The notes beneath the pieces are model-generated. The model searched no databases, was not told where the DNA came from, and saw only the letters and a program-made list of their open reading frames with translations. A stretch of 61,912 nt of DNA, filler included. It is 6 parts of 6 records of this genome, joined end to end, with 100 filler letters (N's around TTAATTAATTAA, not from the genome) between each part and the next. Parts side by side here need not be neighbours in the genome. Positions count along the whole stretch, not along the records: positions 29,526 to 41,896 come from SRR31147125_17651; 5 more parts are not named here. One strand, given 5' to 3'. Within the stretch, counting starts at the first letter, position 1, and each line of letters begins with the position of its first letter. Below are positions 29,526 through 60,844 of the stretch, piece after piece. A program made the position numbers and the translations under genes.

Positions 29526-29566
29526 GGCAAGTTATTAAAAACCGATTCCTTAATATTTTTGGGCAC

Positions 29567-30787
29567 TTATGCTTGCTCTTTTCCGGCGTTGATTTTCTCA
29601 TACGCTTGTCGCATGGTTTCAGCCAATTGATCGATATCTGCAGGTTTTCTCAGGTAGGCAAATGCTCCCAACTCCATGCAGGTTTTCTTGTCCGCCTCCG
29701 AGCCATGCCCCGTAAGGATAATCACTTCAATTTCAGGTTTGGTCTGTTTGATTCTACGAAGGACTTCAAATCCATCAATCCCGGGCATTTTCAGATCCAA
29801 TACCATGACTTCGGTTTCATCTTTATCGGCGGTGTCCAAGGCCTCTTGCCCGCTGAAAACAACATTACTGTTAATTTGTCTCATTCTCAGACGTTCGGAG
29901 AGGGTTTGAACGAACTCTTTTTCATCATCCACCAGCAGGACATGGAGCGGTGTTTCAAATTCAAAGTTGTGGGTCATGCCTGTTTTATAATAATTTTTTC
30001 CGATTTTTGTTTCAACGGCTTTTACCCCTTCGATTCTCTGTGTGATAGAGGTGATTTTTTGTTTTAACTTGGAAAGAAAGAGAACGTTCTTGTCAATTGT
30101 AACGGTAATTTTACCCTCAACTGAGGAAACAACCAAGCCGCTGCCCACTTCTGCAAGGGCCTTTGAAACATTCGCCGCCAGAACAAAGTCATCCGCTTCC
30201 ATTGCCACGGTTGTTTCAGAAATTTTTGACAATGTTTCAAGATGTTTTGTAATGAGAGCGACGGACGCTTCGACATCGAGCTTGTCCGAAGGAATGACGA
30301 TGTCATACAGAGACTCATCCCACGCTTTTTTCCCGGTCAGGCCGTTTACCCACAACATGGTTTGTTTATCCGCTTCCGCCACTTCGTTGGCAGCCTCTTT
30401 TTCGGAGATGCCTTTTTGGGCCGCACCGTCAATGACTCGGGTCTCTTTATCGGTGACGATCAGTACCCGTAGGGCATGACTGATCCACTCCGGAATGAGG
30501 TGGCCTAGAATACCGTTGAAGATAACATCACCTTTATTGATATGAGCGGCCAGTGTCGTTTTGAGTGCGGCAATGATTTTTTCCTTTTCATGGGTAAAGT
30601 CGTTAAAAGGAATCTGTTTGGAATCAATTACCTTCTGGATACTTGCCAGCTGAATTTCCTGGGTGTTGGCGGTTTCTTCCATAATGTCTCTATCCGTTAA
30701 TACAGAGTACCCTAATTGCTTGGACAGCTTGGCAACCGTTTCGTTCGAATGGGTAAAGTGTGCGCCTGTGATGGAAATAATAGACAT
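29567..30787 (-). CDS. Cytidylate-kinase-like domain + C-terminal receiver domain protein
   Basis: N-terminal A..LG, D..LYD..I kinase-like fold; receiver motifs LLVDDE, LDLKMPG.DG, LTGHG, KP. Confidence 0.85.
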   Translation of the reverse strand: MSIISITGAHFTHSNETVAKLSKQLGYSVLTDRDIMEETANTQEIQLASIQKVIDSKQIPFNDFTHEKEKIIAALKTTLAAHINKGDVIFNGILGHLIPEWISHALRVLIVTDKETRVIDGAAQKGISEKEAANEVAEADKQTMLWVNGLTGKKAWDESLYDIVIPSDKLDVEASVALITKHLETLSKISETTVAMEADDFVLAANVSKALAEVGSGLVVSSVEGKITVTIDKNVLFLSKLKQKITSITQRIEGVKAVETKIGKNYYKTGMTHNFEFETPLHVLLVDDEKEFVQTLSERLRMRQINSNVVFSGQEALDTADKDETEVMVLDLKMPGIDGFEVLRRIKQTKPEIEVIILTGHGSEADKKTCMELGAFAYLRKPADIDQLAETMRQAYEKINAGKEQA

Positions 30788-30907
30788 GATATGCTCCTTT
30801 AATTTATTATGGTGTCAATTCAATTAATTTGTTTTCAGCTATTCTTATCTTATGCTTAAGGTCAATGTACGTTGTTTCTTCTTGCGTTTTTCTTGTTAAT
30901 CTATAAC

Positions 30908-30923
30908 AGCAAACTGCGTGCCA
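30908..30923 (-). promoter_or_regulatory. Sigma-54 promoter
   Basis: Minus strand TGGCACGCAGTTTGCT matches consensus TGGCAC-N5-TTGCW. Confidence 0.85.
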
Positions 30924-30942
30924 ATTTTGTTTTATGTATATA

Positions 30943-30955
30943 AATCAAAATGTTG
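30943..30955 (+). promoter_or_regulatory. IHF binding site
   Basis: AATCAAAATGTTG matches WATCAANNNNTTR, about 20 nt upstream of the -24 element. Confidence 0.6.
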
Positions 30956-31197
30956 CGGTTTGTATGTGGTTTTTGTTTTTTTATTTATAAACGTTATGGA
31001 ACATAATGGGATTGCTGCATTCAGATGGTGCTGCACCCAAATGAAACATTATAAAACATTGATATTTTGATTTGATAACCGTTACAAGCAGCAAGTTAAA
31101 AATTGAAATAAAAGATAGTAAAAAGAAAAGTGGTTATCGAAGAAAGAGGAATAGAGTGGAGGGCGAAATAAAAAAATGAGAAGAAGTAAGATAAGAA

Positions 31198-31228
31198 TAA
31201 AAAAGCCCGGAAAAAAATTCCCGAGCTT
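31198..31228 (-). terminator. Rho-independent terminator
   Basis: Minus strand AGCTCGGGA-T-rich loop-TCCGGGCT followed by a T tract. Confidence 0.65.
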
Positions 31229-31439
31229 ATGGTCCAAAATCGTATGGTCTCAAATTACTGATGATTTGTTGTTCCGTTTTTGTTGCGACTCACTGGAAAT
31301 CAAGCAGCCTTTCTAAAGAATCGTCGGTTACCGAATCGTGTGGCGTGTGGACCTTTGGGTGTGTTTTTGTCCGTCCGCATCGTCCATGCGCTCTCTCAAA
31401 ATATCGCCGGTAAGCCAACAACGGCACAATTACAATGGT

Positions 31440-32144
31440 TTACTCAAACGTCAACATCAAGCCGTGGGGCTCAGCACGCATATTCCCTCCCAGCACATCA
31501 ACCGCCCGAATAAGCTCCTTCCAAAGGGCAACCGAAGGAAGCGCCTCAGCGATATCCGGCAGGGCACTTTCAGCATGAGAAATCAAAATGGCCACTTGAA
31601 TCTTTGACGGAGTGTCTTCATTGGCCTCACTATTTCCGGAAAAATCAAATGTAATGGCGGTTCCGGAAGGAACCGTTGAAAACAAACACTCCATGGAAAG
31701 ATGTAACACCGCCTGGAACTGAACCGGATCAGTATAATGGTTAATAGGGACGTTGCCGTTACACGGAGTTACCGACATCGTAACCCCGACATTTTCCGCC
31801 AAACGCCCGGTCAGTGCTAAAAGGCAATGCGCCAACGAAACAATATCCACCCTCTGAAAATCATGATCTGTTGTGTGGGCAAATCCGTTTAAATTGGACG
31901 TCAATCCGGTGCCTCGCACCGCTTGTTTTTTGATGAGTTCCAAACAACCGACCAACCGCTCCACAGGAACATCTTCTCCCTTGCGCATGGCCATCATGAT
32001 AAGATCTTCCATCAGTCCGGCATTTTCCTTGACAATGGCCAGAACATTTTGAATCTCATGTGAAACCGAGGCGGTCACTTTTCCGAAAAACCTGGGTTTC
32101 AGTGAATCTTGCGGGGTATCGGGTGCAGTCTCTTGGCCGGTCAT
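31440..32144 (-). CDS. Histidine-kinase-like protein with H-box but degenerate ATPase domain
   Basis: ASVSHEIQNVLAI H-box; no recognisable N/G1/F/G2 boxes; no sensor or TM region. Confidence 0.75.
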   Translation of the reverse strand: MTGQETAPDTPQDSLKPRFFGKVTASVSHEIQNVLAIVKENAGLMEDLIMMAMRKGEDVPVERLVGCLELIKKQAVRGTGLTSNLNGFAHTTDHDFQRVDIVSLAHCLLALTGRLAENVGVTMSVTPCNGNVPINHYTDPVQFQAVLHLSMECLFSTVPSGTAITFDFSGNSEANEDTPSKIQVAILISHAESALPDIAEALPSVALWKELIRAVDVLGGNMRAEPHGLMLTFE

Positions 32145-32201
32145 TGCTCTTTGTCCTTCTATTGTTCGTCATTTTTTGTTTCTGGGGCATTCAACTGGCG
32201 G

Positions 32202-32570
32202 TCAATTTCCGACAGCGCTTTTCACTTTATCGGTCAAATCCTTGATATCCACGGGTTTCATCAAATAGTCAAAAGCTCCCAGACGCATCCCCTCCATGCC
32301 TTCTCGGGTTGAACCATGGCCGGTCAGCAGAATCACCGGCAGCTCCGGAGTGATGATTTTGATCTGTCTCAATGTGTCAAGTCCGCTCATCCCCGGCATC
32401 AAAAGATCCAGGATAACAATATTGAAACCGTTGTCGGAAATTTTTTTCAGTCCGGTTTCTCCGTTGGCAGCGGTTTCGGTCTCGTAGCCTCTGAGGTTCA
32501 ATCGTTCAGCCAAAGTAGATGAAAACTCTTCTTCATCATCGATCAATAAAACCTTTAGGGATTCACTCAT
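32202..32570 (-). CDS. Single-domain response regulator
   Basis: LLIDDE, LDLLMPGMSG, LTGHG, DYLMKP. Confidence 0.93.
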   Translation of the reverse strand: MSESLKVLLIDDEEEFSSTLAERLNLRGYETETAANGETGLKKISDNGFNIVILDLLMPGMSGLDTLRQIKIITPELPVILLTGHGSTREGMEGMRLGAFDYLMKPVDIKDLTDKVKSAVGN

Positions 32571-34287
32571 TTCTTTCCTCCAATGCCTGCTCGGATGATT
32601 GTGGAAGGGTGATGATAAACTCCGTACCTTTGCCTACCCGGCTGGTGACATTGATGGTGCCGCCGAGCCGGTCGATGATCCCGTAGGAAATGGAAAGGCC
32701 GAGGCCGGTTCCTTTTTCCTTTTTGGTGGAGAAAAAGGGATCGAATATGTGTTTGACGAGGTCTTCCGGGATGCCGTGACCGTTGTCGCGAAGGGTGATT
32801 TTGATGCCTCCGTCCGTGATGTTGTCTGTCTGAACAATGACGACGCCGCCATCTTGCACGGCGTCAAAGGCGTTGGTCAACAGGTTGAGAATGACCTGTT
32901 GCACCTGACCTCTGTCGGAGATGATAGTGTGAACCGGGGTCACAAGTTTGAGTCGAATATCAATTTTACGGTAAAGCGCTTCTCTCTCAAGAAACCCCAA
33001 TACCTCCCGGACGACGGCATTGATGTCCATGCTTTCGATCTGAACATCGATTCGTTTGGCAAAACCCAGAAGCCGGTGGGTGATCTTTCGACAGCGATCC
33101 ACGGATTTCAGGGTGGAGTCAATCAATCCGGCGAACTTTTCTTTATGGGAGAAATCCTCTGAAAATTCCATGATATCGCTCATCAATCCCGCTTTTTCGT
33201 TGATGATGGCCAAGGGGTTGTTGATTTCATGGGCCACACCGGCGGCCAGACGACCAATGGAAGAGAGTTTTTGAGTGTGTTGCAGTTCATTCAAGGTGTT
33301 TTCCCGCCGCTCATCTGATGCCTTGAGGCGCTGGATCATCAAGTCCGTGATTCGAATGATGGCAATCACAATGAGCACAAGGCCGATGGCAAACACGGCA
33401 AAGAGCTCGGTTTTCAAGGCATACCACGATTGAAGCACCACGGATCGCGGTTTGACGATCACCAGCGTGTAGGGGGCTGTATTGAATCCCACGGTTGCAA
33501 TCACGACATTCTGACCGGTGTCGTCCCGGGTTTCATAAATGTAAGACTCGAAAGTCTCAGTGGAGATGTCAAGGGGGCACTTTTCCAGGGTCTTGCCGTA
33601 AAACTTGGCGTCGGTTTGAAAGATGCCGTCCGTATCGATGAGAAATGCGTCGCTTTTCGGGTCGAGCCCCATGCTTTGAATCAATCCTTGGAATTGATCC
33701 GTATCGATGGTGGCTCTTAATATCCAGGTGCGACCGTCATCGGCAAGGTGCTGGACCGCCATCACCATGTGGGGGAATTTGCGATGTCCCATAAAGACAT
33801 TGCTGATATATTTTCCTTTGATGCGCACTTCTTGAAAAGAGATCTGTTCCGCATAGTTCTTTCCCAAAAGCGGGTAGGGTCCGGCATAGCTGATGAGAGT
33901 TCCCTCGGCATCGATCAGACCCAGATCGACAAATCCGCCGAATTCCTTTTTCAGGAACATCAGGATTCGTTTCATCTTGTTATTGTCTTTGAGTTCCTCA
34001 TAGGTGTAGGCCGTTGCAATGAATCGGACGGTGGAGAGACGCGCCTCCAGTAAGAGTTCGAATGAGTGTTTGGTTTTGCTTGCCAACGTTAGAATCGGTG
34101 CCGTGATTTCGCTTCTCAGGTGGGATCGGTATTGAAAATGGTTGATGACGATCATCAATCCCATGGGCAGTGTGGTGATGGTGATCATGATAATGATGAT
34201 CAGTCGACGCAGAACGATGTAATGTTCCGGAGACATCTCATCGGGATGGAAAAGCTTGGCGATTAAAGCGAAAAATTTGGTTTTCAT
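32563..34287 (-). CDS. Membrane sensor histidine kinase with Cache-type extracytoplasmic domain
   Basis: 2 TM; GVAHEINNPL, NLLTNA, DNGHGI, FDPFFSTK, GTGLGL. Confidence 0.93.
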   Translation of the reverse strand: MKTKFFALIAKLFHPDEMSPEHYIVLRRLIIIIMITITTLPMGLMIVINHFQYRSHLRSEITAPILTLASKTKHSFELLLEARLSTVRFIATAYTYEELKDNNKMKRILMFLKKEFGGFVDLGLIDAEGTLISYAGPYPLLGKNYAEQISFQEVRIKGKYISNVFMGHRKFPHMVMAVQHLADDGRTWILRATIDTDQFQGLIQSMGLDPKSDAFLIDTDGIFQTDAKFYGKTLEKCPLDISTETFESYIYETRDDTGQNVVIATVGFNTAPYTLVIVKPRSVVLQSWYALKTELFAVFAIGLVLIVIAIIRITDLMIQRLKASDERRENTLNELQHTQKLSSIGRLAAGVAHEINNPLAIINEKAGLMSDIMEFSEDFSHKEKFAGLIDSTLKSVDRCRKITHRLLGFAKRIDVQIESMDINAVVREVLGFLEREALYRKIDIRLKLVTPVHTIISDRGQVQQVILNLLTNAFDAVQDGGVVIVQTDNITDGGIKITLRDNGHGIPEDLVKHIFDPFFSTKKEKGTGLGLSISYGIIDRLGGTINVTSRVGKGTEFIITLPQSSEQALEERNE

Positions 34288-34292
34288 CAGTT

Positions 34293-34679
34293 TCAATGAG
34301 ACGCCTCCATAATGTACGGTTCGACGGGGCACTGTTCAACCATTCGTTTGAAAAGAACAGCCTCTGATGTCAATGTGCCTGAGAGATAGGTCTCAAAAGC
34401 GCGCTGCCATGTTCCGATGACGGAATCGAAAATCGTGATTTTTTTCCATCTGAGAAACTGGTAGAACTCGTCTTCAATGGCACCGCAAATCAGGGTGTGA
34501 ATGTTTTCCTTTATGATGAGGTGGCACAGTTGTTCGGCGGATGCCCCCGGAAGCACAACGGTTCGCTCTTCTTCCACCTCTTTTTCCCTGGAGATTAGAA
34601 AAATAAGAACTTCCGTTGCCAAATCAAATCGGGGAGAGACTTCGTCTCCTGAAATGGGGATCAAGACTTTTTTTATCAT
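34293..34679 (-). CDS. NifB/NifX (MTH1175 / Orange-protein-like) family protein
   Basis: K..IP..G..VSPRFD.A, LICGAI, terminal Y..G.L. Confidence 0.75.
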   Translation of the reverse strand: MIKKVLIPISGDEVSPRFDLATEVLIFLISREKEVEEERTVVLPGASAEQLCHLIIKENIHTLICGAIEDEFYQFLRWKKITIFDSVIGTWQRAFETYLSGTLTSEAVLFKRMVEQCPVEPYIMEASH

Positions 34680-34829
34680 GGCGGTGCGGCTATGGGTGTC
34701 TCAATTCATTGATAAAAATAAAATTCATTTAATTCATGATGTTATGCCGTCAACATACCGTCAAACCCATGCGGTGTCAATGATGATGTTTCATTAGTTT
34801 GAATATTTGTTTTGAAAAGTTTCAAAATG

Positions 34830-36492
34830 TTATTCAATCCCATGCTGCTTCATTTTTCTCCACAAGGTCGTGCGTCCCCACCCGAGAAGTTTTGCGGCAA
34901 CTTGTTTTTTCCCTTTTGCTTTTAGTAGTGCATCGAGAATCATTTCCCGTTCTGCCGCGGCCCAAGTCATTTCTCTTCGGGATGTCGGGGGCGTCTGGGG
35001 GGGAATGGTGCAGAAGGGTCAGAAGTCGACGACAAAGACTGTGGCGGTGATGGAGACGGGGGAACCGCTGTACCGGGAGTGGGGGAATCGGTGGCATACG
35101 TCGGCTGATCGTGACCGGTCATCCCTGCATGATGCGCCTGTTGTTGCGTGGAAGCAAATTGTGGAGAGCAAAATTGCGGGGTTTCTAAATGGGTGAGGGG
35201 GAATCTAGCTGGTGCGTTGTCGGATCGGAAGGCGCAGCAGCAACGGGCAGAGGTGATGCGGTACCATTTGTTTGTTCTACTCCGGGCGTGGACCCGTCAA
35301 ATAAATACGCGGGTAGATGATCCGGTTCGATAACACTCTCCCCGGCCATGTTGACGGCATACTCCACAATGTTTCTCAGTTCTCGAATGTTGCCGGTATA
35401 GGGATATTTAGTCAAAATGGTCAACGCACTCGGCGAGATGCGCCGGGTCGATCTTCTCTGGGTGGAAAAGGTGTTGAGAAAGTGATCCAGCAGCAGACGG
35501 ATGTCCCCGTCCCGTTCCCGAAGCGGGGGGAGATGAATTCTGGCCACGTTCAATCGATAGAAAAGATCCTGACGAAACTTGCCTTCTTTCACCATGATTT
35601 CAAGATTTCTATGGGTAGCGGCGATCATCCGGACATCCGCATTGAATCCTTTGGTGCTGCCAAGGGGGTAGATCACCTTGTCATCTAGGAAAGTCAACAG
35701 CTTCACCTGAAGGGGCAGGGGCAGATCTCCGATCTCGGTCAAAAAGATGGTGCCGTTGTGCGCCAGTTGGAATCGTCCCGGTTTGTTTTCCACGGCGCCG
35801 GTAAACGCCCCTTTTGTATGACCGAAAATCTCCGACTCCAGCAGGGTTTCCGGAAGGGCACCGCAGTTGATTTTGATGAACGGCCCTGACGCGCGGGTGG
35901 AGGTTTGATGGATCGCTTCGGCCACCAGATCCTTTCCCGTACCGGTCTCGCCGGTAATTAAGATGGAGGTGTCGCTTTGGGAAAGGATGGGGATGGTCTG
36001 AAAGATTTTTTCCATCTGCGGACTTCGGCCCACGATATCGGAGAAGCTGAAAGGCGCGCCGCTTTGGGGAAGGCTCTGTTTGATGGATTCGACATCCTCC
36101 AAAGTCTCCATGTACCCGGTGTGGGTACCGTCGGAAGAGAAAATGGGAGCCAGGGTCATCCGGACGGAAAAGCGTCTCCGGTCCCGATTGATGATATCGC
36201 TTTCAAATGCGATGGGCTTTTGGTTTTTCAGGATGGAAGCAGCGGGGCAGCGGCCCATACATTTCTTGCTTCGGGTGATGTGACGACAGGGAACGCCGAT
36301 GGCATCGGATGCGGAAAAACCGGTCAACGCTTCAAATGCGCGGTTGACACGGACAATCCTGAAATCAAGATCGGTAATGGCAACGCCATTGGGGATTTCA
36401 TCAAGGATTCCGCAAAAATTGACGGGAGAACGAAATAACCCTTGAACGGACGGGATAATGGACTGATTTATGGGATGTGTGCTCGATTGCAT
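34830..36492 (-). CDS. Sigma-54 enhancer-binding protein PAS-AAA+-HTH (OrpR-like); frameshifts at G5 35197-35201 and G7 34997-35003
   Basis: PAS with CX8CX3C; GETGTGKD, ESEIFGH.KGAFTGA, FRQDLFYRL, GNIREL.N. A Fis-type HTH (EREMILDAL...AAKLLGWGRTTLWRKMK) is recovered by adding one base at each run. Confidence 0.9.
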
Positions 36493-36826
36493 GATAGCGG
36501 CATGGTAAATGGAATTGAAAAAGGTGTCAAATGAAAATGGGAGCGGGGGGAATTTTTAGATATGTTTACATGGTTGTTCCATGGATGGAACGAAAAAGAA
36601 CAGAAATGCGACCAAGTGGCTGTTTTTTTTATTGTAATTCTCTACTTATTTCCATGGGGGGATCGTCGGAACTTCTCATTGACAAACCGTCGAAGCTCAT
36701 ATATTTATCGATACTTGTATCATGTGAACTATTGAATATAAGTGGGTGCTTGACCACATGAAGTAATAAATCAAGTGAGTTGTAAGTTATTGGTTGGTAA
36801 AAATTATTAATAAAAAGGAGAACTTA

Positions 36827-38985
36827 ATGTTGACAAAAATTTTTCCGTTTCTGCTCTGGTTCCAAGATTACAATGGAGAGAAGTTCAGAGCGGATCTGAT
36901 TGCCGGCATCACGGTTGCCATGGTGCTGATTCCTCAGTCCATGGCCTATGCTCAATTGGCAGGGCTTCCTGCCTATTACGGGCTTTATGCTGCCTTTCTA
37001 CCCCCCATGATCGCATCGCTGTTCGGTTCCAGTCGTCAGCTTGCCACCGGGCCGGTGGCGGTGGTGTCGTTGATGTCGGCGGCCTCTTTGGAGCCCCTGG
37101 CAACGGCAGGCGGGCCGGAGTTCATTGCCTACTCCATCATTTTGGCATTTACCGTGGGAACCTTCCAGCTTTTTTTGGGTATTTTCAGATTGGGTCTGGT
37201 GGTGAACCTGCTCTCCCATCCCGTTGTCAACGGGTTTACCAATGCGGCGGCCATCGTCATCGCATCGTCCCAGTTCTCCAAGCTGTTCGGTGTGTATGTG
37301 GACAAAGCGCCGCACCATTATCAGACCATTGTTAATGTGTGTAAATCCGCCATCCATTATACCCACTTTCCCACACTCGGCATGGGCATTCTCTCCATTG
37401 CCATCATGGTGGGACTGAAACGATACAACCCCAAAATTCCCAACGTGTTGGTGGCGGTTGCCCTGACTACGATTCTATCCTGGGCAACGGGATTCAATAA
37501 CGATCGATATGTTCCCATAGAGAACATCAAAAATCCCAAAGTCGTTGAGACCATTCATGAATTTAATAAGGATGTTGCCCTCATCGAAGAATTGGGTACG
37601 GATAGGGCAATGTTGAATAACGAGTTGAAAGCGGCGCAACAGGCCTCAAAACATGCGGCGCATCACTTCCCCTCGGACAAGGAGATCGAGCTGAAACATC
37701 AGCTGGTCATCCTCAATTCCAAGATTGATCGCGCCAAAGCATCCGCCCATGAGAAACGGGAGTTGCTGCGTCTGATTCATTTCTCCACAGCCAAAGATCC
37801 GGGAGAGACACCGGAGTTTCATGTGGGGTCCATATTGCCAAGCGGTGAAGAGACCGATGGTAACAAGTGGCGTATCAAAATATCCAATAAAGAGGTCAAG
37901 ACCGATCGAATCAAAATGATCGGTGGCGGTGCCATTGTTGCCGACATCCCCAAGGGGCTGGTTTTCAGCATCCCCAAAGCACCGGCAAACACCTCTTATC
38001 TCTCTGTTTTTTTCAATTGCTTCCATTTGCTATTATCATATCTCTTTTGGGGTTCATGGAGGCTATTGCCATTGCGAAATCCATGGCCGCCAAGACCGGG
38101 CAGAAGCTTGACCCAAGTCAGGAGTTGATTGGACAGGGGCTTGCCAACATGATCGGTTCCTTTGGTCAGAGTTATGCGGTTTCCGGTTCTTTTTCACGTT
38201 CCGCAGTCAACCTTCAAGCCAATGCCGTGAGCGGGGTGTCCTCAGTCATCACCAGTGTCGTGGTGGCATTGACCTTGCTGTTCTTTACTCCGCTTCTCTA
38301 TCATCTCCCCCAGGCGGTTCTGGCATCGGTCATCATGATGGCGGTTATCGGACTGATCAATGCGTCCGGTTTTATCCATGCCTGGAAAGCGAAACGTTCC
38401 GATGGGATCATCTCGGTGATCTCTTTTGTCTGCACCCTATATTTTGCACCGCATCTTGAGGAAGGTATCATGGTGGGTGTCGGGCTCACCTTTTTGCTTT
38501 TTATCTACAAAAACCTTCGTCCAAGAGTAGCGCTTCTTTCAAAAAGCGAAGACAATACACTGAAAAGCGCCATCAAATGCGGTCTCAAAGAGTGTGATCA
38601 CATTGCCGTGGTCCGATTTGACGGCTCTTTGATCTTCACCAATGCCACCTATCTGGAAGACAAGGTACTTGAATACATTACTGAAAAACCGGAGCTGATG
38701 CATGTGCTTATCGAGTGCAGTGGTATCAACGATATCGATGCTTCAGGCGAGGATGCCCTTTCCATTCTCATCGATACGGTACGCGGCAGTGATCGCGAGA
38801 TCTCATTCTGCGGCGTCAAAGAGGTGGTGAACGATGTCATGGATCGTACCCATCTTCTTGAAAAGATCGGTATGGAAAATATTTATCCCGATGCCGGCAC
38901 TGCCCTCAACACCATTCATCAGCGAATCCATGATCAGGGCGACTGTGTACACTGTCCTTTGAAAGAGTGTGTCTATCTGCCCTGA
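36827..38985 (+). CDS. sulP: SulP/SLC26 anion (sulfate) permease with STAS domain; frameshift at T7 38007-38013
   Basis: D.IAG.TVA.VLIPQSMAYA, GSSRQLATGP, QELIGQG.AN, GSFSRSAVN, STAS RFDG.L.F.N and IDASG; AAGGAG RBS. Confidence 0.93.
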
Positions 38986-39029
38986 AAAGAAAATAATTAA
39001 AAATTGACCGGTTTTTGAATTAAAACCAG

Positions 39030-39068
39030 AAAGCGCAGATTGGTATCGAGCAATCTGCGCTTTTTTTT
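39030..39068 (+). terminator. Rho-independent terminator
   Basis: AAAGCGCAGATTG-loop-CAATCTGCGC-T8. Confidence 0.85.
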
Positions 39069-39178
39069 GTGAGATGGATTTTGTTGTTGTGGATCAAGTA
39101 CATCGTGTCAACTGGTTGTTTCAGATTGATAAAATCGAAGAAAATTCGATGGGTAATGGCTTTTTATTCATTTGTTTT

Positions 39179-40144
39179 TCATTGACTGACCACTTGTCCT
39201 CTGCCATTTTGTTTTGCCTGATAAACCCGTTTGTCGGCGATCTCAATCAATGCCTCAGAGGTGGTTCCATCAGCCGGAAAATAGGACATCCCCGCACTGA
39301 AACCGATGGATATCGGCGGATCACCAGGGATGGGGGACGCCATCTTGGTCATCAAGTGTCTCACCAATGTCGGTCCACGTCTGTTATCAATGCCTTGAAG
39401 GATCAGTACGAACTCATCTCCGCCGTAACGAAACAGCAGGTCCGTGGTCCTCAGGGTGGCCATGATCCGCTTTGAAAACTCAATCAGCACCTCATCTCCC
39501 CGAAGATGGCCATACATGTCGTTGACCTTCTTGAAATGGTCGATATCCAAAAAAACCAATGAAAATAGATAGTCGTATCGCTGAGCCCGATGGATCTCGT
39601 CCAACAATCGCATATCAAACGCCTGGCGGGACAATGCACCGGTTAAATGATCGTACAGGCCGTCGCTGTATTCAGCCGGCTTTACTTCACGTAATCGGGT
39701 GCTGAGCAAGCGCAGCAACTCAATCCCGAAACCGGGAATGAGGGATAGCAGATCTTGGAATCTATCTTTACTTAAATGTTTCAACTTGGTTTCGGTAATG
39801 GCGATCACCGATGCCGTTCGTTCAATGTTTTCAAGAAGTGCGATTTCACCCACCACATGGTGGGGTTTTCGGAAAGTGAGAACCCTTGGGCAATCCAATG
39901 AGTCTTGGAGCACCACCATCACCCCGGACTCTATCAAATAGAGACCATCGGCCAAGTCATTTTGCATGAACAGAATCTCACCGGGCTGCAGGGTACAGTC
40001 ACTGCCATATGCATCGAGGAAGTCCTGCAGGTTTTCGTTTACAATGCTTTCATTCTCCAGTGACGTGGAGCGATCCGGAAAATGGCGGTAAGTGGATTGT
40101 AACTTTTCCAGTAGAGCGTTTGAAATACGTTGTTTTTCATTCAT
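39179..40144 (-). CDS. Cyclic-nucleotide-binding domain + GGDEF diguanylate cyclase
   Basis: GEILF.Q.D, GEIALL....RTAS; DIDHFK.VND.YGH..GD, RTTD I-site, RYGGDEF. Confidence 0.92.
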   Translation of the reverse strand: MNEKQRISNALLEKLQSTYRHFPDRSTSLENESIVNENLQDFLDAYGSDCTLQPGEILFMQNDLADGLYLIESGVMVVLQDSLDCPRVLTFRKPHHVVGEIALLENIERTASVIAITETKLKHLSKDRFQDLLSLIPGFGIELLRLLSTRLREVKPAEYSDGLYDHLTGALSRQAFDMRLLDEIHRAQRYDYLFSLVFLDIDHFKKVNDMYGHLRGDEVLIEFSKRIMATLRTTDLLFRYGGDEFVLILQGIDNRRGPTLVRHLMTKMASPIPGDPPISIGFSAGMSYFPADGTTSEALIEIADKRVYQAKQNGRGQVVSQ

Positions 40145-40382
40145 AGGATATTGATCTCACATTTGTTCGGCAGCATTTTTGCATCAATTGGGTAAGCAGG
40201 TTGCCATTGATTCCGGCGCTTATGGTTGGTCCGATTTCCTTTGCACTTCAAATTTCATTTTTCACAGGGTCTTATAATGCGTTCCAGCTGAATGTTACAA
40301 CACTTTCTATCATCGAGAGTCAATTTTTTTTGAAATTGTTCCAAGAGATTGTTCCGTTGTTGAGCGGGTCGGTTGATATATA

Positions 40383-41495
40383 TTAAGTTCGTCGTTTCAT
40401 TTTGTTTATGGCTTTAATTTTCAGCGAAACTTCTTTCCATCGTTCCTTTTCAATACGATCCGCACTTTTGTGTTGACGGTCCGATAAATAGGACAGTTCC
40501 CGCTGCATTTTTCGAAAGCTCTCCAATCGTTCTTGGCTGAGTTCACCTTTCTTGACGGCTTGCATTACCGCACACCCCGGTTCATCCCCATGGTTACAAT
40601 CGGAGAACCGGCATTGATCGGCCATCGCTTCGATTTCCGGGAAGGTCGTGCCCACGCCGTCGTCATCGTTCCAAAAAGCGATCTCCCGAATTCCCGGATT
40701 GTCAATCACCATACCGCCACAGGGCAGCTGGATCAAATCCCTGGAGGTGGTGGTGTGCCGTCCTTTGCTCACCGATTCACTGACCGTCGCGGTGGGCTGG
40801 ATCTGCTCACCAAAGAGCCGGTTGGCCAATGTGGACTTGCCCGCACCGGATGAACCGATCAAGGCAATGGTTTTTCCTGGGGAGAGATACGGCAACAGCC
40901 CATTGATCCCTGTATGGTCGTGGGAGGAAACCAAGTGAACGGGAACACCGAATGCCACCGATTCCACATCTGCGGCATAGATCTCGGGATCCGGATGAAG
41001 ATCGGCTTTTGTCAGCACGATAACGGGCGTGAGACCGCAATTGTATATCAGTGTTAAATATCGCTCGATACGGCGAAGATTGAAATCCCGATCCAGCCCG
41101 CAAACAATGAACACGGCATCCAGGTTGGCAGCAATCTCTTGCGCTTTTGTCGGTGCGGTGTCTATTTTGCCTCGACTGCCGGCCGCCCCTCTGGAAAGTA
41201 CATTCTTTCGGGGGAAAACGTGATGAATGAGGGTGTCTCTCACAAGAACCCAATCTCCAGCCACTGGAAATATACCGCTATTTTCATGCATAAGTCTACC
41301 GGCAAGGGAGACCAATCGTTCCGAGTTACCGTCAGCGATTCGAAAGCTGTTTTTTCTCACGCCAATGACTCTGGCAGGAATTTCAAACGCGTTGTCTTCT
41401 TCATGAGAAGCGTGTTTAGAAGTTAATTTTTCCAATTGTGACTGATAGTAGGAATTCCAACCCAATCTTAAAAGAACTTGATTTGTAATAAGCAT
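40383..41495 (-). CDS. rsgA: Ribosome small subunit-dependent GTPase A
   Basis: P..GDWV, RIERYL, TKAD, GSSGAGKSTL, GRHTT, D.PG.RE, Zn site CRFSDC.H..EPGC; GGAG RBS before ATG 41495. Confidence 0.93.
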   Translation of the reverse strand: MLITNQVLLRLGWNSYYQSQLEKLTSKHASHEEDNAFEIPARVIGVRKNSFRIADGNSERLVSLAGRLMHENSGIFPVAGDWVLVRDTLIHHVFPRKNVLSRGAAGSRGKIDTAPTKAQEIAANLDAVFIVCGLDRDFNLRRIERYLTLIYNCGLTPVIVLTKADLHPDPEIYAADVESVAFGVPVHLVSSHDHTGINGLLPYLSPGKTIALIGSSGAGKSTLANRLFGEQIQPTATVSESVSKGRHTTTSRDLIQLPCGGMVIDNPGIREIAFWNDDDGVGTTFPEIEAMADQCRFSDCNHGDEPGCAVMQAVKKGELSQERLESFRKMQRELSYLSDRQHKSADRIEKERWKEVSLKIKAINKMKRRT

Positions 41496-41780
41496 TGTCT
41501 GTCTCCGTATTGATCGTTGATTTGATTGACTTTGGCAGCGTTCTTTCAAGGGCAATCAAACCTCGTTGAGAGCAAGTTGCCCATGCGCATTTAATTGAAT
41601 TGATCTTGGTGCATTGATTTACCAAAAATAAGATTAAATGACTGATTGCTGTAATGTACATCGGGGATATTAAAAAACGCGTTGCAGACGGAGAAGGCAG
41701 CTATAGCGACGGGATTGGTTCGATTGAGTATCGACCCGGAAGGAACTTAAAATTGAAGGGTGATTACTTGAAAAGTCGGG

Positions 41781-41852
41781 TTAATCGGCCGTCTGGAGAC
41801 GCTCTTTCATATCTGCAACGGCGGGCACAATTTCCATCATTTTCCTTAACAT
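41781..41852 (-). CDS. Candidate 23-aa leader peptide MLRKMMEIVPAVADMKERLQTAD
   Basis: GGAGG RBS 4 nt before ATG; lies in the leader of rsgA; coding region is complementary to a downstream segment. Confidence 0.5.
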   Translation of the reverse strand: MLRKMMEIVPAVADMKERLQTAD

Positions 41853-41896
41853 AAAACCTCCATTTCATTATAACGGCCATGTCAGGCCACCTGACA

Positions 41897-55616: not shown

Positions 55617-55768
55617 ATTTTAGATGAAATCGAAGACTTTTTTTATAAGGAGGAAAGAAGTTAAAAAGTATTTGGAAAAAAAGAGAAAATAATTAGTGAA
55701 TGAAAGTTTTGAGTGTAAAAATAGAATTATACTTCACAATTAGTAATTCACAAAAAGGAGATGAAAAG

Positions 55769-57145
55769 ATGAAAGTATTTTCAAAGTTTCAAGCGTTAGG
55801 AAAAGCACTAATGATGCCAATAGCAGTAATGCCGGTAGCAGCTATTTTATTGAGATTAGGTGTGTTATGGAATTTATCTTTTGTAACAGCAGCAGGTTCA
55901 GCAATCTTTGATAATTTGGCAATATTATTTGCAATAGGTGTGGCTATTGGACTTGCGAAGGACAATGCGGGAGCAGCAGGCTTAGCAGGTGTTGTCGGAC
56001 ATTTTGTAATCTTAAACGGAGCAAAGGCTATCAATGGGGATATAAACATGGGTGTATTCTCAGGAATTATTGGTGGATTGGTAGCAGCAAATATGTATAA
56101 CAGATATCATAAAATTCAACTACCAGAATTCTTAGGTTTCTTTGGTGGAAGAAGGTTTGTACCAATAATTACATCTTTAGTTTGTATCGTATTAGCGGGA
56201 GTATTTGGATATGTGTGGCCAGTTATTCAAGATGGATTAGATGTAACTGCAAAATGGATGATAGGTTCTGGTTCAATAGGACTGTTCTCATTTGGGGTAC
56301 TTAATAGATTACTGATTCCAACTGGATTACACCACGTAATCAACTCAATGGCTTGGTTTACATTTGGGAATTTTGAATACCTAAAAGACGGAGTAGAAGT
56401 AGTAGCTAATGGTGATCTACATAGATTCTTCGCTGGAGATCCAGCAGCAGGTATATTTATGACAGGATTTTTCCCAGTGATGATGTTTGGATTACCAGCG
56501 GCAGCGTTAGCAATGTATACAACAGCTAAAAAGGAAAATAAAAAGAGAGTAGCAGGGGTTCTGTTTAGTATAGCTTTCACAGCATTTTTAACAGGAATAA
56601 CTGAACCAATTGAATTTATGTTTATGTTTTTAGCACCTGGTTTATATTTGATTCATGCGATATTAACAGGAGTGGCACTAGCATTAACGGCAGCATTAGG
56701 AATTCATCATGGTTTTGGGTTCTCAGCAGGAGCAATAGATTTCTTCTTAAATATGAATATAGCGACGAAAGGTTGGTTACTTATTCCCGTTGGAATAGCT
56801 TTTGCAATAGTATACTATATTATATTTGTTGCTGCGATAAAAATGTACAATTTAGCAACTCCAGGAAGAGAAGATGAAAATGAAGAGGATAAAGAAGAAA
56901 CTGGATCTTCTGACCAGTTATCTATTCAAGTTTTAAAAGCATTAGGTGGAAAAGAAAATATAATTTCAGTAGATGCTTGTATTACTAGATTACGATTAGA
57001 GGTTAAAAACCAAGATGTTATTCAAGATCAGGTACTTAAAAATTTAGGAGCAAAAGGAGTAATTAGACCATCAGAAACTACTACTCAGGTAATTTTCGGT
57101 GCAAAGGCTGAAATAATTGCTCAAGAAATTAGAAATTTGAAATAA
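55769..57145 (+). CDS. nagE: PTS N-acetylglucosamine-specific IICB component
   Basis: Q.LGKALM.PIA, FFGGRRFVP, GLHH, GITEPIEF, IIB DACITRLR; AAGGAG RBS. Confidence 0.92.
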   Translation: MKVFSKFQALGKALMMPIAVMPVAAILLRLGVLWNLSFVTAAGSAIFDNLAILFAIGVAIGLAKDNAGAAGLAGVVGHFVILNGAKAINGDINMGVFSGIIGGLVAANMYNRYHKIQLPEFLGFFGGRRFVPIITSLVCIVLAGVFGYVWPVIQDGLDVTAKWMIGSGSIGLFSFGVLNRLLIPTGLHHVINSMAWFTFGNFEYLKDGVEVVANGDLHRFFAGDPAAGIFMTGFFPVMMFGLPAAALAMYTTAKKENKKRVAGVLFSIAFTAFLTGITEPIEFMFMFLAPGLYLIHAILTGVALALTAALGIHHGFGFSAGAIDFFLNMNIATKGWLLIPVGIAFAIVYYIIFVAAIKMYNLATPGREDENEEDKEETGSSDQLSIQVLKALGGKENIISVDACITRLRLEVKNQDVIQDQVLKNLGAKGVIRPSETTTQVIFGAKAEIIAQEIRNLK

Positions 57146-57256
57146 ATAGCTTAAACCGGTTGAGTAATATTTTAAAATCTTTTATAATTGAGTTAGAGTT
57201 TCATCTAAGAGAAAGCATAGAAAAATACTTGATAATGAATAAAGTTGGAGGAGAAG

Positions 57257-57994
57257 ATGAGTAAAATATCAAAAGACAGTATTATACCTCTTTATCATCA
57301 AATAAAAAAACTTATAAAAGATATGATAAAAAATGACTTAATAAAACCGGGAGATTCAGTTCCTTCAGAAAGAGAATTAAGTAAAAAATACTCAATTAGT
57401 CGGCTGACTGCAAATAAAGCTGTGTCTGAGTTAGTTGACGAAGGAATTCTTTATAGAGAAAAAGGAAAAGGAACCTTTGTATCTAAACCCAAACAATCAC
57501 AAAAACTAGAATATCTAAAGAGTTTTACAGAAGAGATGAAAGAAAAAGGTTTAATTACTAAAACAGAAATTCTAGAATTTGAAATAGAGAATATAGAACA
57601 TAAATTGCGAGAAAAAATCAATATTGATAAAAGTGTAGAGAGAATTATAAGAATTAAAAGATTAAGAATTATTGAAGAAGAGCCTTTTGCAATTGAAACT
57701 GTTTGGATTCCTCTAAAATATTGTCCGGATTTGACAAAAGAAAGATTAGAGGGTAAATCACTTTATAATGTATTACAAAGAGATTATGGTTTAGAACCCT
57801 TTTATGCAAAACAGGCAATAAAACCTATAAAAGTATGTAAAAATGAAGCAGGAATACTTAAAATAAAAAAAGGTGATTTGGCACTTCTATTTAATAGAAG
57901 GACATATCTTAAAAATGATGAGATAATAGAGTACACTGAAACTATTAATAGATGCGATAGGTATGAGTATGAAGTTATTTTGAAGCATAATTAA
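57257..57994 (+). CDS. GntR/HutC (UTRA) regulator, NagR-like
   Basis: PLY.QI, PSEREL, SR.T..KA, G.GTFV, SFTEEM; nag operon context. Confidence 0.9.
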   Translation: MSKISKDSIIPLYHQIKKLIKDMIKNDLIKPGDSVPSERELSKKYSISRLTANKAVSELVDEGILYREKGKGTFVSKPKQSQKLEYLKSFTEEMKEKGLITKTEILEFEIENIEHKLREKINIDKSVERIIRIKRLRIIEEEPFAIETVWIPLKYCPDLTKERLEGKSLYNVLQRDYGLEPFYAKQAIKPIKVCKNEAGILKIKKGDLALLFNRRTYLKNDEIIEYTETINRCDRYEYEVILKHN

Positions 57995-58026
57995 TTTTAA
58001 GAGAGTCATTAGAGAAGGAGTGGAAT

Positions 58027-58839
58027 ATGCCATTAAAAATAAATCCAAATACAGTGAATATTGATAAAGCAGATAGTCTGAAGATAGTAGAGCTAATGAA
58101 TGCAGAGGATAAGAAAATAGCTTTTGAAGTAGAAAAATCAAAAGAATCAATAGCAGCAGCTATAGATTTAATGGAAAAATGTTTAAGGGAAGATGGAAAA
58201 ATAATATACTTGGGAAGTGGGACAAGTGGAAAATTAGCAGTTATTGACGCTTCCGAATGTCCACCTACCTTTGGTGTGGATGATGATATGATCATAGCTT
58301 TGATTTCAGGTGGAAATGAAGCCGTTTATGGTTGGAAAGAAGAAACAGAGGATAATTTAGCTTTAGCTGAAAAGGATTTATCTGATATTAATTTCTCCTC
58401 AAAAGATATATTAGTTTCGGTATCAGCAAGCGGTAATACTCCTTATGCTGTGTCGGGAGTGGAGTATGCCAAAGAACTTGGTGCAAAGACTATAGGTTTA
58501 TTTTGTGCAAAAGAATCTAAAATGGAAAAACTAGTTGATATAGGTATTTTGGTTGATGTAGGTCCGGAAGTAATTGCCGGATCTACTAGGCTAAAAGCTG
58601 GAACAGCACAAAAAATGGTTTTAAATATGCTTAGCACAGGAGTTATGATAAGACTAGGTTATGTGTATAGTAACTTAATGATTAACCTAAAACCTATTAA
58701 TCAAAAACTAAAAGATAGATTAATTGATATAGTTTCAATTGCATCAAAAAAAACTAGATTAGAAGCTAAAACTACTCTAGAAAGAAGTAAATATGATGTA
58801 AAGCTGGCGATAAAGGAATTGGGAAAAGAGGAACGCTGA
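58027..58839 (+). CDS. murQ: N-acetylmuramic acid 6-phosphate etherase
   Basis: G.GTSG.L...DASECPPTFG, ASG.TPY, GPE...GSTRLKAGTAQK.VLNM. Confidence 0.93.
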   Translation: MPLKINPNTVNIDKADSLKIVELMNAEDKKIAFEVEKSKESIAAAIDLMEKCLREDGKIIYLGSGTSGKLAVIDASECPPTFGVDDDMIIALISGGNEAVYGWKEETEDNLALAEKDLSDINFSSKDILVSVSASGNTPYAVSGVEYAKELGAKTIGLFCAKESKMEKLVDIGILVDVGPEVIAGSTRLKAGTAQKMVLNMLSTGVMIRLGYVYSNLMINLKPINQKLKDRLIDIVSIASKKTRLEAKTTLERSKYDVKLAIKELGKEER

Positions 58840-59981
58840 TGAAAGCAATAATAAATGGAAAAATAATTCACAAAGATAAGATTTTAGAGGATTATGTGAT
58901 TGTTTTTGATAAGAGGATTAAAGAAATCCTGAAAGTTGAAGATTTTGAGAAGGGTAGTTACGATATTGAAATAATTGACGCTAGTGGAAACTATGTATCG
59001 CCAGGTTTTATAGATATTCATATTCATGGATGTGCAAATAGTGATGTAATGGATGGAACTAAAGAAGCTCTTGAAACAATGGGAAAAACAATAGCTAAAA
59101 ATGGAGTAACATCTTACCTACCGACAACAATGACTATGGATAAAAAAATAATAAAAAAAGCATTGGTGAATATTAGAGAAGCGATATCAATGAATATAGA
59201 GGGTGCAGAAATATTAGGAGCTCATCTTGAGGGGCCTTTTATAAATGAAAAATATAAAGGGGCTCAAAATGAAAAACATATTATAGATCCTGACTACGAA
59301 TTTGTAAAATCTTATTTAGATGTCATTAAATTAATTACATATGCTCCTGAAAAGGATAATAATTATGAGTTCACTGATAAGATGTGCAGTTGTCATAAAG
59401 ATGTTACTTTATCTATTGGTCACACTGATGCAGATTATAGAACATGTATGGATGTAATTGATAAAGGAGTTTCTCACATAACTCATTTATTTAATGCAAT
59501 GCCAGGTTTTCATCATAGAGAACCTGGTGTTATTGGGGCAGCTTTTAATAGTGATGTAAGCTGTGAGTTGATAGCAGACAATGTACATATCAATCCAGAG
59601 AATTATAATATAGTATTAAATATTAAAGCAGAAGATAAAGTAGTGTTAATAACTGACTCTATGAGAGCTGGTTGCCTAAAGAGTGGAACATATGATTTAG
59701 GAGGACAAGAAGTAATAGTAGAAGGAAATGCAGCTAGATTAAAAGATGGAACATTGGCTGGAAGTATATTAAAATTAAATGATGCAGTTAATAATATAAA
59801 GAAAAAAACAGAAATAGATCTACTTCATTCAATTAAACTTGTAACAATTAACCCTGCAACTGTTATAGGTGTTCAAGATAGAAAAGGAAGCCTTGAAGAG
59901 GGAAAAGATGCAGATATTATAATAATTGATGAAAACTTCCAGATATATAAAACAATAGTAAATGGAGAGGTACAGTATTAA
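58839..59981 (+). CDS. nagA: N-acetylglucosamine-6-phosphate deacetylase
   Basis: PGFIDIHIHG, HLEGPF, GHT, THLFNAM, TDSM, LAGS. Confidence 0.96.
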   Translation: MKAIINGKIIHKDKILEDYVIVFDKRIKEILKVEDFEKGSYDIEIIDASGNYVSPGFIDIHIHGCANSDVMDGTKEALETMGKTIAKNGVTSYLPTTMTMDKKIIKKALVNIREAISMNIEGAEILGAHLEGPFINEKYKGAQNEKHIIDPDYEFVKSYLDVIKLITYAPEKDNNYEFTDKMCSCHKDVTLSIGHTDADYRTCMDVIDKGVSHITHLFNAMPGFHHREPGVIGAAFNSDVSCELIADNVHINPENYNIVLNIKAEDKVVLITDSMRAGCLKSGTYDLGGQEVIVEGNAARLKDGTLAGSILKLNDAVNNIKKKTEIDLLHSIKLVTINPATVIGVQDRKGSLEEGKDADIIIIDENFQIYKTIVNGEVQY

Positions 59982-60025
59982 TTTATTAAAAGAAATTAAC
60001 AGTTTATTTATATATGGGAGGTTAT

Positions 60026-60844
60026 ATGAGGTTAATTATCACAGATGAAATGAGTGAATGGGCAGCGCTTTATGTAGTACAGGAGATTAATAAATCTAGG
60101 GCTAGAGGGAAGAAACATTTTGTGCTGGGACTTCCAACTGGTGGAACACCACTTGAAATGTATAAAAAATTAATTAAGTTTAATAAAGAAGGTTTGATTA
60201 GTTTTGAAAATGTAGTGACTTTTAATATGGATGAGTATGTGGGGCTTCCTGAGGAACACCCTGAGAGTTACCACTCCTTTATGTATAACAATTTCTTTAA
60301 TCATATTGATATTAAAGATGAAAACATAAATATACTAAACGGAAACTCAAATGATTTAGAACAAGAGTGTAAAGACTACGAAGAAAAAATTAAAAGTTTT
60401 GGAGGAATTGATCTCTTTATTGGAGGTGTAGGAGCAGATGGACATATTGCATTTAACGAACCATGCTCATCATTATCCTCAAGAACAAGAATTAAAACTT
60501 TAAATGAAGAAACTAGAATAGCAAACTCAAGATTTTTTGAAAATGATATAGCTAAAGTTCCGAAAACAGCCTTAACAGTTGGAGTAGGAACGATACTGGA
60601 TTCAAAAGAAGTTTTGATACTTGTAAAAGGGTATGGAAAAGCCTTGGCATTGAAACAAGCTGTAGAGGGAAGCGTCAATCATATGTGGACAATAACAGCT
60701 TTACAGACTCATCGTAAAGGGATAATCGTTTGTGATGAATCGTCTACAATGGAATTAAAGGTTAAAACAGTAAAATATTTCAAGGATCTTGAAAAAAATA
60801 ATCTGAATGTAAAAGAAATTTTAAATAGAATAAAAAATAATTAA
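60026..60844 (+). CDS. nagB: Glucosamine-6-phosphate deaminase
   Basis: [28 protein letters not shown]. Confidence 0.97.

Follow-up and report, generated by a model that had tools for sequence, protein, structure and literature searches.

In Desulfovibrio vulgaris Hildenborough the sigma-54 activator OrpR (DVU2106), which carries a GAFTDA loop according to a table in PMC4641369, is gated by a [4Fe-4S] cluster bound to its PAS domain (PMC8359166). Published gene clusters of Desulfobacteraceae join SulP transporter genes to two-component genes and a TetR gene, and DASS genes to two-component and CBS genes; the same work proposed that Cache kinases sense sulfate, within a regulation model that is speculative (PMC11887813, published in 2025). 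The DNA considered here is a window of 61.9 kb, one contig of which (SRR31147125_17651, positions 29526-41896, 47% GC) encodes a SulP permease, a PAS-AAA-HTH sigma-54 activator, a Di-Nase (NifX-like) partner protein, a Cache-domain histidine kinase, a lone receiver, a kinase-like protein devoid of ATP-binding boxes (pseudo-kinase) and a cytidylate kinase-like protein with a receiver domain (cmk-receiver) (Table 1). All seven had been read by a first-pass annotation, and a Pfam scan of the contig proteins together with an open reading frame (ORF) check located each family in its place. The divergence of SulP from the other six genes, also part of that annotation, holds for positions and strands, but the six minus-strand genes do not form one operon, as a terminator-like hairpin and a sigma-54 promoter set cmk-receiver apart.

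Based on the comparison of this locus with its relatives, it seems rather likely that it belongs to a two-layer control cluster, in which activator, partner and DNA box form one layer acting on a DASS-type operon, the Cache kinase and its relay form another, and SulP is a looser member. Gene content, promoter, box and linkage support this reading at the level of sequence and a structure model supports the contact between PAS and partner; the box binder, activation, the Fe-S cluster, the order of the relay and the substrate are what we infer. The core of SulP, Cache kinase and receiver is already known from the genomic and proteomic description in PMC11887813, so the absence of a known characterised system with this layout, as the annotation had it, does not extend to SulP and DASS clusters with Cache kinases. 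The available text of that paper does not name the activator pair, no description of this pair with sulfate transporters was found in the open-licence literature, and the new part would be the activator/partner/box layer on the DASS operon.

In the mechanism proposed, the activator, an OrpR paralogue, would bind two blocks of tandem ATGTTTCA repeats and control the promoter driving cmk-receiver, a receiver and a DASS transporter (and a CBS gene), the DASS genes lying off the window contig and following cmk-receiver in the closest relatives. The Di-Nase partner would dock on the PAS domain beside the cysteine triad and set the activity of the activator, and an Fe-S cluster on the triad would add a redox input in Desulfobacterales. 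The Cache kinase would sense an outside solute (sulfate, as proposed in PMC11887813) and phosphate would pass from it to the lone receiver and pseudo-kinase and on to receivers without a DNA-binding part, which would act on transporters by contact; SulP would have its own promoter.

The relatives of cmk-receiver indicate Desulfobacteraceae as the source, the nearest named organism being Desulfamplus magnetovallimortis (76%). A search with the PAS region of the activator against 401 genomes of the order (E 1e-25; more divergent orthologues exist beyond this threshold) returned one orthologue in each of 74 genomes, and loci were fetched for all of them with about 6 kb upstream and 14 kb downstream, many contigs being shorter. 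The partner is encoded in 71 of these loci, the kinase in 60, the pseudo-kinase in 50 and cmk-receiver in 25; a DASS-type transporter (PF00939) is found in 49 (45 of the 57 with at least 10 kb downstream) and SulP in 6. The closest relatives of the window share the order activator > partner > kinase > receiver > pseudo-kinase > cmk-receiver > receiver > DASS > CBS, and the DASS neighbours comprise a conserved type (53-88%) and a divergent type (23-27%). In Desulfamplus magnetovallimortis an insert of 17 kb at the promoter interrupts this same gene order. The genes of the published DASS clusters (DASS, two-component, CBS) are present in the relatives; the window contig ends 41 bp beyond the cmk-receiver stop codon, so that further genes of its sigma-54 promoter are out of view. 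A phylum-wide search with the partner gave matches in 37 of 401 genomes, DASS-type genes occur in 12 and SulP in 1 of 20 wider phylum-level loci, and a metagenome scan with the partner gave three loci. The annotation's expectation that the seven families co-occur is borne out as a wide co-occurrence with sulfate-candidate transporter families, but all seven stand together in just 6 of the 74 activator loci, and the divergent layout in 1 (L211).

With cmk-receiver as the query (best 80 of 594 matching loci kept) the majority layout is TetR > SulP > cmk-receiver > kinase > receiver > pseudo-kinase > receiver, and of these 80 loci 69 have SulP on the same strand, 46 a called TetR gene and 8 a cysteine-bearing activator. 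In 29 of 32 loci examined among L013-L080 the region upstream of TetR has an operator, GACTGA-N4-TCAGTY, that overlaps a sigma-70 promoter and fits the 16-bp palindrome mentioned in PMC11887813. Loci free of cmk-receiver (L154, L166, L171, L177, L205 and others) encode a closely related receiver whose C-terminal tail reads A(A/T)FAEAGEF, the motif being repeated in a small ORF that precedes this receiver; the arrangement occurs in 19 of 77 loci and is absent from the window contig.

The annotated consensus sigma-54 promoter at cmk-receiver is present, as one of two strict matches in the whole window. In related loci sigma-54 sites lie upstream of cmk-receiver in 20 of 29 cases, at the same position as in the window, and of the receiver in 33 of 165; none was found upstream of the pseudo-kinase (0/52), the partner (0/68), DASS (0/53) or sulP (0/6, and 0/64 in a second set of related loci). 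Two blocks of tandem ATGTTTCA with a 10-bp period accompany the related promoters, mostly 80-130 bp away, and a matrix trained on 52 such promoters detected at least two boxes in 47 of these same 52 and none in base shuffles. With this matrix, the window being left out of training, the box score of the window was highest at 31061 and rose again at 31006. Boxes are carried by 11 of the 40 sigma-54-like sites in 80 loci plus the window, namely by the window, nine loci holding the activator and one with the activator 28 kb away; two of these 11 belonged to the matrix training. The strict box/promoter pattern was found in 23 of 401 genomes, of which 20 belong to the 74 with the activator and 3 to the 327 without it (two of these three holding an orthologue beside the site after all), and its reversed control in 0 of 401; the independent part of this test consists of four matches on contigs other than the activator's, plus the window. 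A canonical activator is absent from 38 of the 52 promoter loci, the box is absent from three of three sigma-54 promoters behind canonical kinase/activator pairs, and reverse-oriented boxes lie in 21 of 67 related activator/partner junctions, forward ones in none. This linkage suggests that the activator binds the boxes, and the transcriptional target is most likely the DASS-type operon rather than the neighbouring sulP. The evidence for an integration host factor (IHF) site is weak, a strict match being found in just 7 of 52 related promoters. A palindrome at about 31010-31040 is not the conserved element. In two loci (L168, L175) a second sigma-54 promoter (CBS > DASS) stands behind a canonical kinase/activator pair with a TGGACA..CTGGAAAC-like motif, which is probably the box of that pair.

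By its sequence, the activator is a member of an OrpR paralogue clade and not OrpR. Its cysteines (C69-X8-C78-X3-C82) have the spacing of OrpR C52/C61/C65 (PMC8359166), and the triad is present in 73 of the 74 order-level orthologues, although its presence was no criterion in their retrieval; CX8CX3C activators occur in several copies in these genomes, so the motif is no proof of orthology. Identity to three orp-linked GAFTDA activators (L243, L244 and L253, the tree references in place of DVU2106 itself) is 40-43%, and the clade is split from them by a branch of 0.63 with FastTree support of 1.0, the split being all that is claimed from trees with a midpoint or arbitrary outgroup and subsampled sequences (56 and 44). 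One genome (G379) holds both kinds of activator. At the fourth-ligand position proposed for OrpR, two after the first Cys, the window has His, and the commonest residues among 77 proteins include H (33), N (20), Y (11) and D (5), with Glu/Asp in the three orp-linked proteins. The label of an OrpR-like sensor is apt for a related PAS-AAA-HTH protein with CX8CX3C, but the window activator does not group with the orp-linked ones and lacks the proposed acidic fourth ligand. No orp ATPases were found in the 74 activator loci as labelled, and control through the OrpR box was rejected, as GGGCGYRTTTTGCGCCC has no match in the window allowing up to four mismatches. Further CX8CX3C PAS activators with GAFTNA, GAFTHA or GAFSGA loops (L103-L105, L107, L109, L111, L114, L117) constitute a candidate Fe-S sensor family. 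Their neighbours, named from N-termini, are presumably CO-dehydrogenase/hybrid-cluster, IscS/NifU and HdrA-like proteins.

Invariant in the partner family are PRFD, ICG, WK and DSV.G residues, and two of its cysteines are conserved. In a tree of a short alignment, with types assigned by gene position, the partner groups with activator-adjacent and orp7-position Di-Nase proteins (support 0.913), apart from the Orp8 type (0.995), so that the earlier label of an Orange-protein-like gene is right as to the Di-Nase domain and misplaces the type. Orp8, the Orange protein, binds a Mo-Cu-S cluster (PMC6345978). In the Desulfovibrio orp loci the orp7-position genes, which lie between those for OrpR and Orp8 (L243:8032-8520, L244:8249-8749), are of the ICGAI type like the window partner; their product is a candidate OrpR modulator, and the available text of PMC6345978 gives the ORP complex as Orp3, 4, 5, 8 and 9, Orp7 not being listed. 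A complex model of PAS residues 16-140 with the partner, run without alignments made in this analysis, scored 0.70 in three runs against 0.01 for the best of three controls, a value that 51 of 78 solved complexes but just 2 of 108 mismatched pairs attain; the runs agreed in at least 86% of contacts and the partner had a predicted local distance difference test (pLDDT) of at least 88. The predicted interface spans the cysteine region and the invariant PAS Arg105, the best-resolved contact, and its partner side is more conserved than the rest of the protein (0.73 vs 0.59, p 0.012). Among solved structures compared by sequence there was no close relative of PAS or partner and no like complex, and some CX8CX3C paralogues are without a Di-Nase neighbour. 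Based on this model, the partner is predicted to dock on the activator PAS domain.

By analogy with OrpR, the triad probably holds an Fe-S cluster in Desulfobacterales. Five distant orthologues lack all three cysteines, though both the partner and the region of the Arg105 motif are retained, so that redox gating, while plausible, is not a constant feature; the family constants are the partner and an odd ATPase site, and redox input is likely in part of the family only.

In the other layer, 55 of the 56 pseudo-kinase proteins retain the His, the remaining one having a gap there; with an E/DxxN motif and no ATP-binding boxes, the pseudo-kinase is a probable phosphotransferase or phosphatase. The cmk-receiver combines a nucleotide-kinase-like fold with a degenerate P-loop, a BON-like middle domain (E 0.013, below cut-off) and an intact receiver (D331); the GK[ST] of the cytidylate-kinase P-loop GxxxxGK[ST] is absent from 22 aligned sequences, the fold being retained in the structure model and fold search. 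The intact kinase boxes, the conserved His and the receivers make a His-Asp-His-Asp relay plausible, in line with the multistep phosphorelay annotated before. As DNA-binding domains are missing from all the receivers and a receiver domain from the activator, the relay cannot reach transcription directly, and the receivers probably act on transporters by contact.

The ATPase site of the activator leaves its activating function uncertain. Of 78 orthologues, 75 have Thr and 3 have Ala in place of the Walker B aspartate, against Asp in 12 of 12 paralogues, and Thr occupies this place in all 23 readable activators from 30 phylum-level loci. At the R122 position of PspF there is Thr, Ser or Met and at that of E125 Asp, each in 78 of 78, and the E43 and sensor I positions are also altered (PspF residue numbers derive from the alignment range). 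In PspF, D107A, R122A and E125D reach 0.23, 1.26 and 0.43 vs 39.5 per min (PMC3419264, Table 1), and exchange of a single residue at any of three such positions leaves about 3% activity or less (PMC3419264, PMC2731916). Such a protein might bind the box with a weak or dead ATPase and serve as a repressor, a trap for sigma-54-polymerase or a subunit of a mixed ring, switched by the partner; a canonical activator is present in 14 of the 52 promoter loci, as this explanation would have it. This main alternative is nevertheless considered unlikely, since GAFTGA (77 of 78), the Walker A lysine, the catalytic Glu, the R-hand and sensor II are retained, the substituted residues hardly vary within the family either, giving the impression of a site rewired under selection, and a sigma-54 promoter needs some activator, most loci holding no other.

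The model of the first-pass annotation, in which the Fe-S redox sensor pair and the phosphorelay control expression of the divergent sulP, agrees with the nearly constant cysteine triad and with the window SulP subtype lying no more than about 10 kb from the activator in 8 further loci. Their orientation varies, though, the SulP orthologue of Desulfamplus magnetovallimortis is on another contig, unlinked, and the five cysteine-free orthologues keep the partner gene and the odd Walker B. Upstream of the window sulP there is no sigma-54 site, activator box or TetR operator (the last in the 400 bp before the gene), nor a TetR gene on the contig, and a Rex-like box is absent from 10 of 11 recovered upstream regions, with one weak match. 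On these grounds, and with SulP in 6 and DASS in 49 of 74 loci, control of sulP by the activator was rejected and the model as a whole appears very improbable; the relay could act on SulP post-translationally, as sulP directly precedes cmk-receiver in most TetR-type loci. The wiring of the two-layer cluster might also serve a solute other than sulfate, such as bicarbonate, dicarboxylate, thiosulfate, phosphate or another anion: the DASS and SulP families carry many anions (PMC5840216), and carbonic anhydrase, ClC, CitMHS-type, TauE and PiT genes recur nearby. This is held to be quite unlikely, because the window SulP is of the long type, like group Ci, with a YGLY motif, and clade C/Ci are proposed sulfate carriers (PMC5840216), D. 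autotrophicum SulP and DASS genes seven tags apart respond to the sulfate level (PMC5840216), and SulP/DASS proteins are abundant and constitutive in the proteomes of six sulfate reducers (PMC11887813, for Ds. variabilis). A first guess equating the locus with D. autotrophicum HRM2_40290-40360 was dropped, the six tags between seeming to fit a TetR-type layout (like L038) better.

Several observations weigh against the two-layer reading itself. The association of pattern and activator is overstated, because the pattern was derived from the same loci and the genomes are related, and one genome (G048) has a box and no found orthologue. No DASS gene is seen in 12 of the 57 well-covered activator loci, distant orthologue loci carry TauE or PiT transporters or none, and the recurrence of carbonic anhydrases in the transporter clusters bears on the substrate. 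A local rearrangement is possible, as the contig ends in a repeat and has no DASS gene. On the side of the partner, the PAS face of the interface shows no greater conservation than the remainder of the domain (p 0.55). The complex test, which cannot separate family members, was also passed by 7 of 44 blind neighbours, and OrpR supplied from a plasmid activates its promoters in E. coli (PMC3897727), so that no partner is needed for activation there. Activation by the window protein is not assured either, the changes at D107, R122 and E125 each crippling PspF singly.

The features of the contig are collected in Table 1. As assembled, the activator ORF (35185-36492, minus strand) is without HTH, HTH_8 being in another frame (E 4.8e-14), and sulP is split over two ORFs. 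A public contig of run X1, possibly the source of the same DNA and so not independent evidence, covers the whole contig unbroken, with one extra base in four homopolymer runs, and yields an activator of 554 amino acids with HTH and a SulP of 719. Reading frames are also unbroken in the orthologues of both genes; genuine frameshifts or pseudogenes were therefore rejected and the breaks are assembly slips. The contig ends (29526-29557 and 41862-41896) are short repeats with depths of 493 and 3422 vs 94 in run X1, whose contig gave no extension past cmk-receiver, stopping at the same repeat; the stretch immediately after cmk-receiver may hold a mobile or multicopy element. The dCache match of the kinase (39.8 bits) is below the 45-bit cut-off. 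A cyclic nucleotide monophosphate (cNMP)-binding GGDEF protein (39179-40144) and an RsgA-type GTPase (40383-41555) follow sulP convergently and were not seen to recur as neighbours. The window as a whole joins six contigs of 31-49% GC by N-TTAATTAATTAA-N spacers, with gene styles that differ between contigs (for example the dnaN region at 42097 and the phosphotransferase system (PTS)/nag cluster at 55700-60844), and is probably a mixed assembly in which genes across spacers are not neighbours.

Table 1. Positions in the window of the genes and regulatory features of the locus.
Feature	Position	Strand	Remarks
cmk-receiver	29567..30787	-	Cytidylate_kin2 + REC by Pfam; first gene behind sigma-54 promoter
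sigma-54 -24/-12 promoter	30907..30923	-	TGGCAC-N5-TTGCT
IHF-consensus match between boxes and promoter	30943..30955	+	consensus from PMC3897727
proximal putative activator box, tandem ATGTTTCA, 10-bp period	30987..31006	-	83 bp upstream of promoter; score 13.7
distal putative activator box	31042..31061	-	138 bp upstream; score 18.7, top in whole window
terminator-like hairpin after pseudo-kinase	31203..31228	-	pattern only; hairpin totals not above chance
pseudo-kinase	31440..32144	-	H-box SHEIQN present, ATP-binding boxes lost; no Pfam match
lone receiver (REC)	32202..32570	-	Pfam
membrane Cache-domain histidine kinase	32563..34287	-	dCache/HisKA/HATPase; H/N/G boxes intact in sequence
Di-Nase (NifX-like) partner, Nitro_FeMo-Co, ICGAI/Orp7-position type	34293..34679	-	PF02579, E 6.9e-07, above cut-off
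sigma-70-like site of partner gene	34752-34780		pattern match
reverse-oriented putative activator box just behind activator stop	34805..34824	+	score 16.9; upstream of the 34752-34780 site
PAS(C69,C78,C82)-AAA-HTH sigma-54 activator	34830..36492	-	GAFTGA intact, Walker B LTE; two one-base assembly slips
SulP/STAS anion permease, ~719 aa	36827..38985	+	one one-base assembly slip

Sulfate respiration begins with sulfate uptake, which influences both rates and isotope signals in sediments, and for the switching of this uptake the locus offers a named candidate regulator along with a partner protein, a promoter and a DNA box. It also points to a natural sigma-54 activator family without the Walker B aspartate and to a predicted role of Orp7-type proteins as PAS-binding modulators, relevant to the genetically tractable D. 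vulgaris. A wider version, which is doubtful, would see in these proteins an activator family with a rewired ATPase (neither a Walker B aspartate nor a trans R122), switched by the dedicated Di-Nase partner on PAS beside the Fe-S site, serving as the transcriptional switch of a main sulfate carrier in about one fifth of Desulfobacterales, with the same partner logic applying to OrpR via Orp7.

Compared with the clusters of PMC11887813, the locus and its relatives have in common the SulP/DASS transporters with Cache kinases, response regulators and CBS proteins, and most of the best 80 loci show the arrangement of SulP headed by TetR and its 16-bp operator. The available text of that paper mentions neither OrpR nor a sigma-54 activator, nor does it name a Di-Nase partner, a pseudo-kinase or a cmk-receiver, and it takes the receivers as promoter-binding WalR type, whereas those of the window family have no DNA-binding domain. 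With OrpR and the orp operons of D. vulgaris Hildenborough (PMC8359166, PMC3897727, PMC6345978) the likeness lies in the PAS-AAA-HTH build, the CX8CX3C spacing, an adjoining Di-Nase gene and a sigma-54 target promoter with upstream boxes and an IHF-like site. The differences are GAFTGA and a Walker B TE in the window activator against GAFTDA and DE in OrpR, a different recognition helix, a direct-repeat box against GGGCGYRTTTTGCGCCC, and the lack of Orp ATPases and Orp8 in a clade whose targets would be transport genes, OrpR sitting by orp operons. Control of a sigma-54 activator by a separate partner protein is known from NifL-NifA. PspA-PspF is likewise a case in which a separate protein is thought to set activator activity by binding (PMC4641369, PMC2731916); unlike in both of these pairs, the window partner is a small Di-Nase-fold protein predicted to sit on the PAS domain of its activator.

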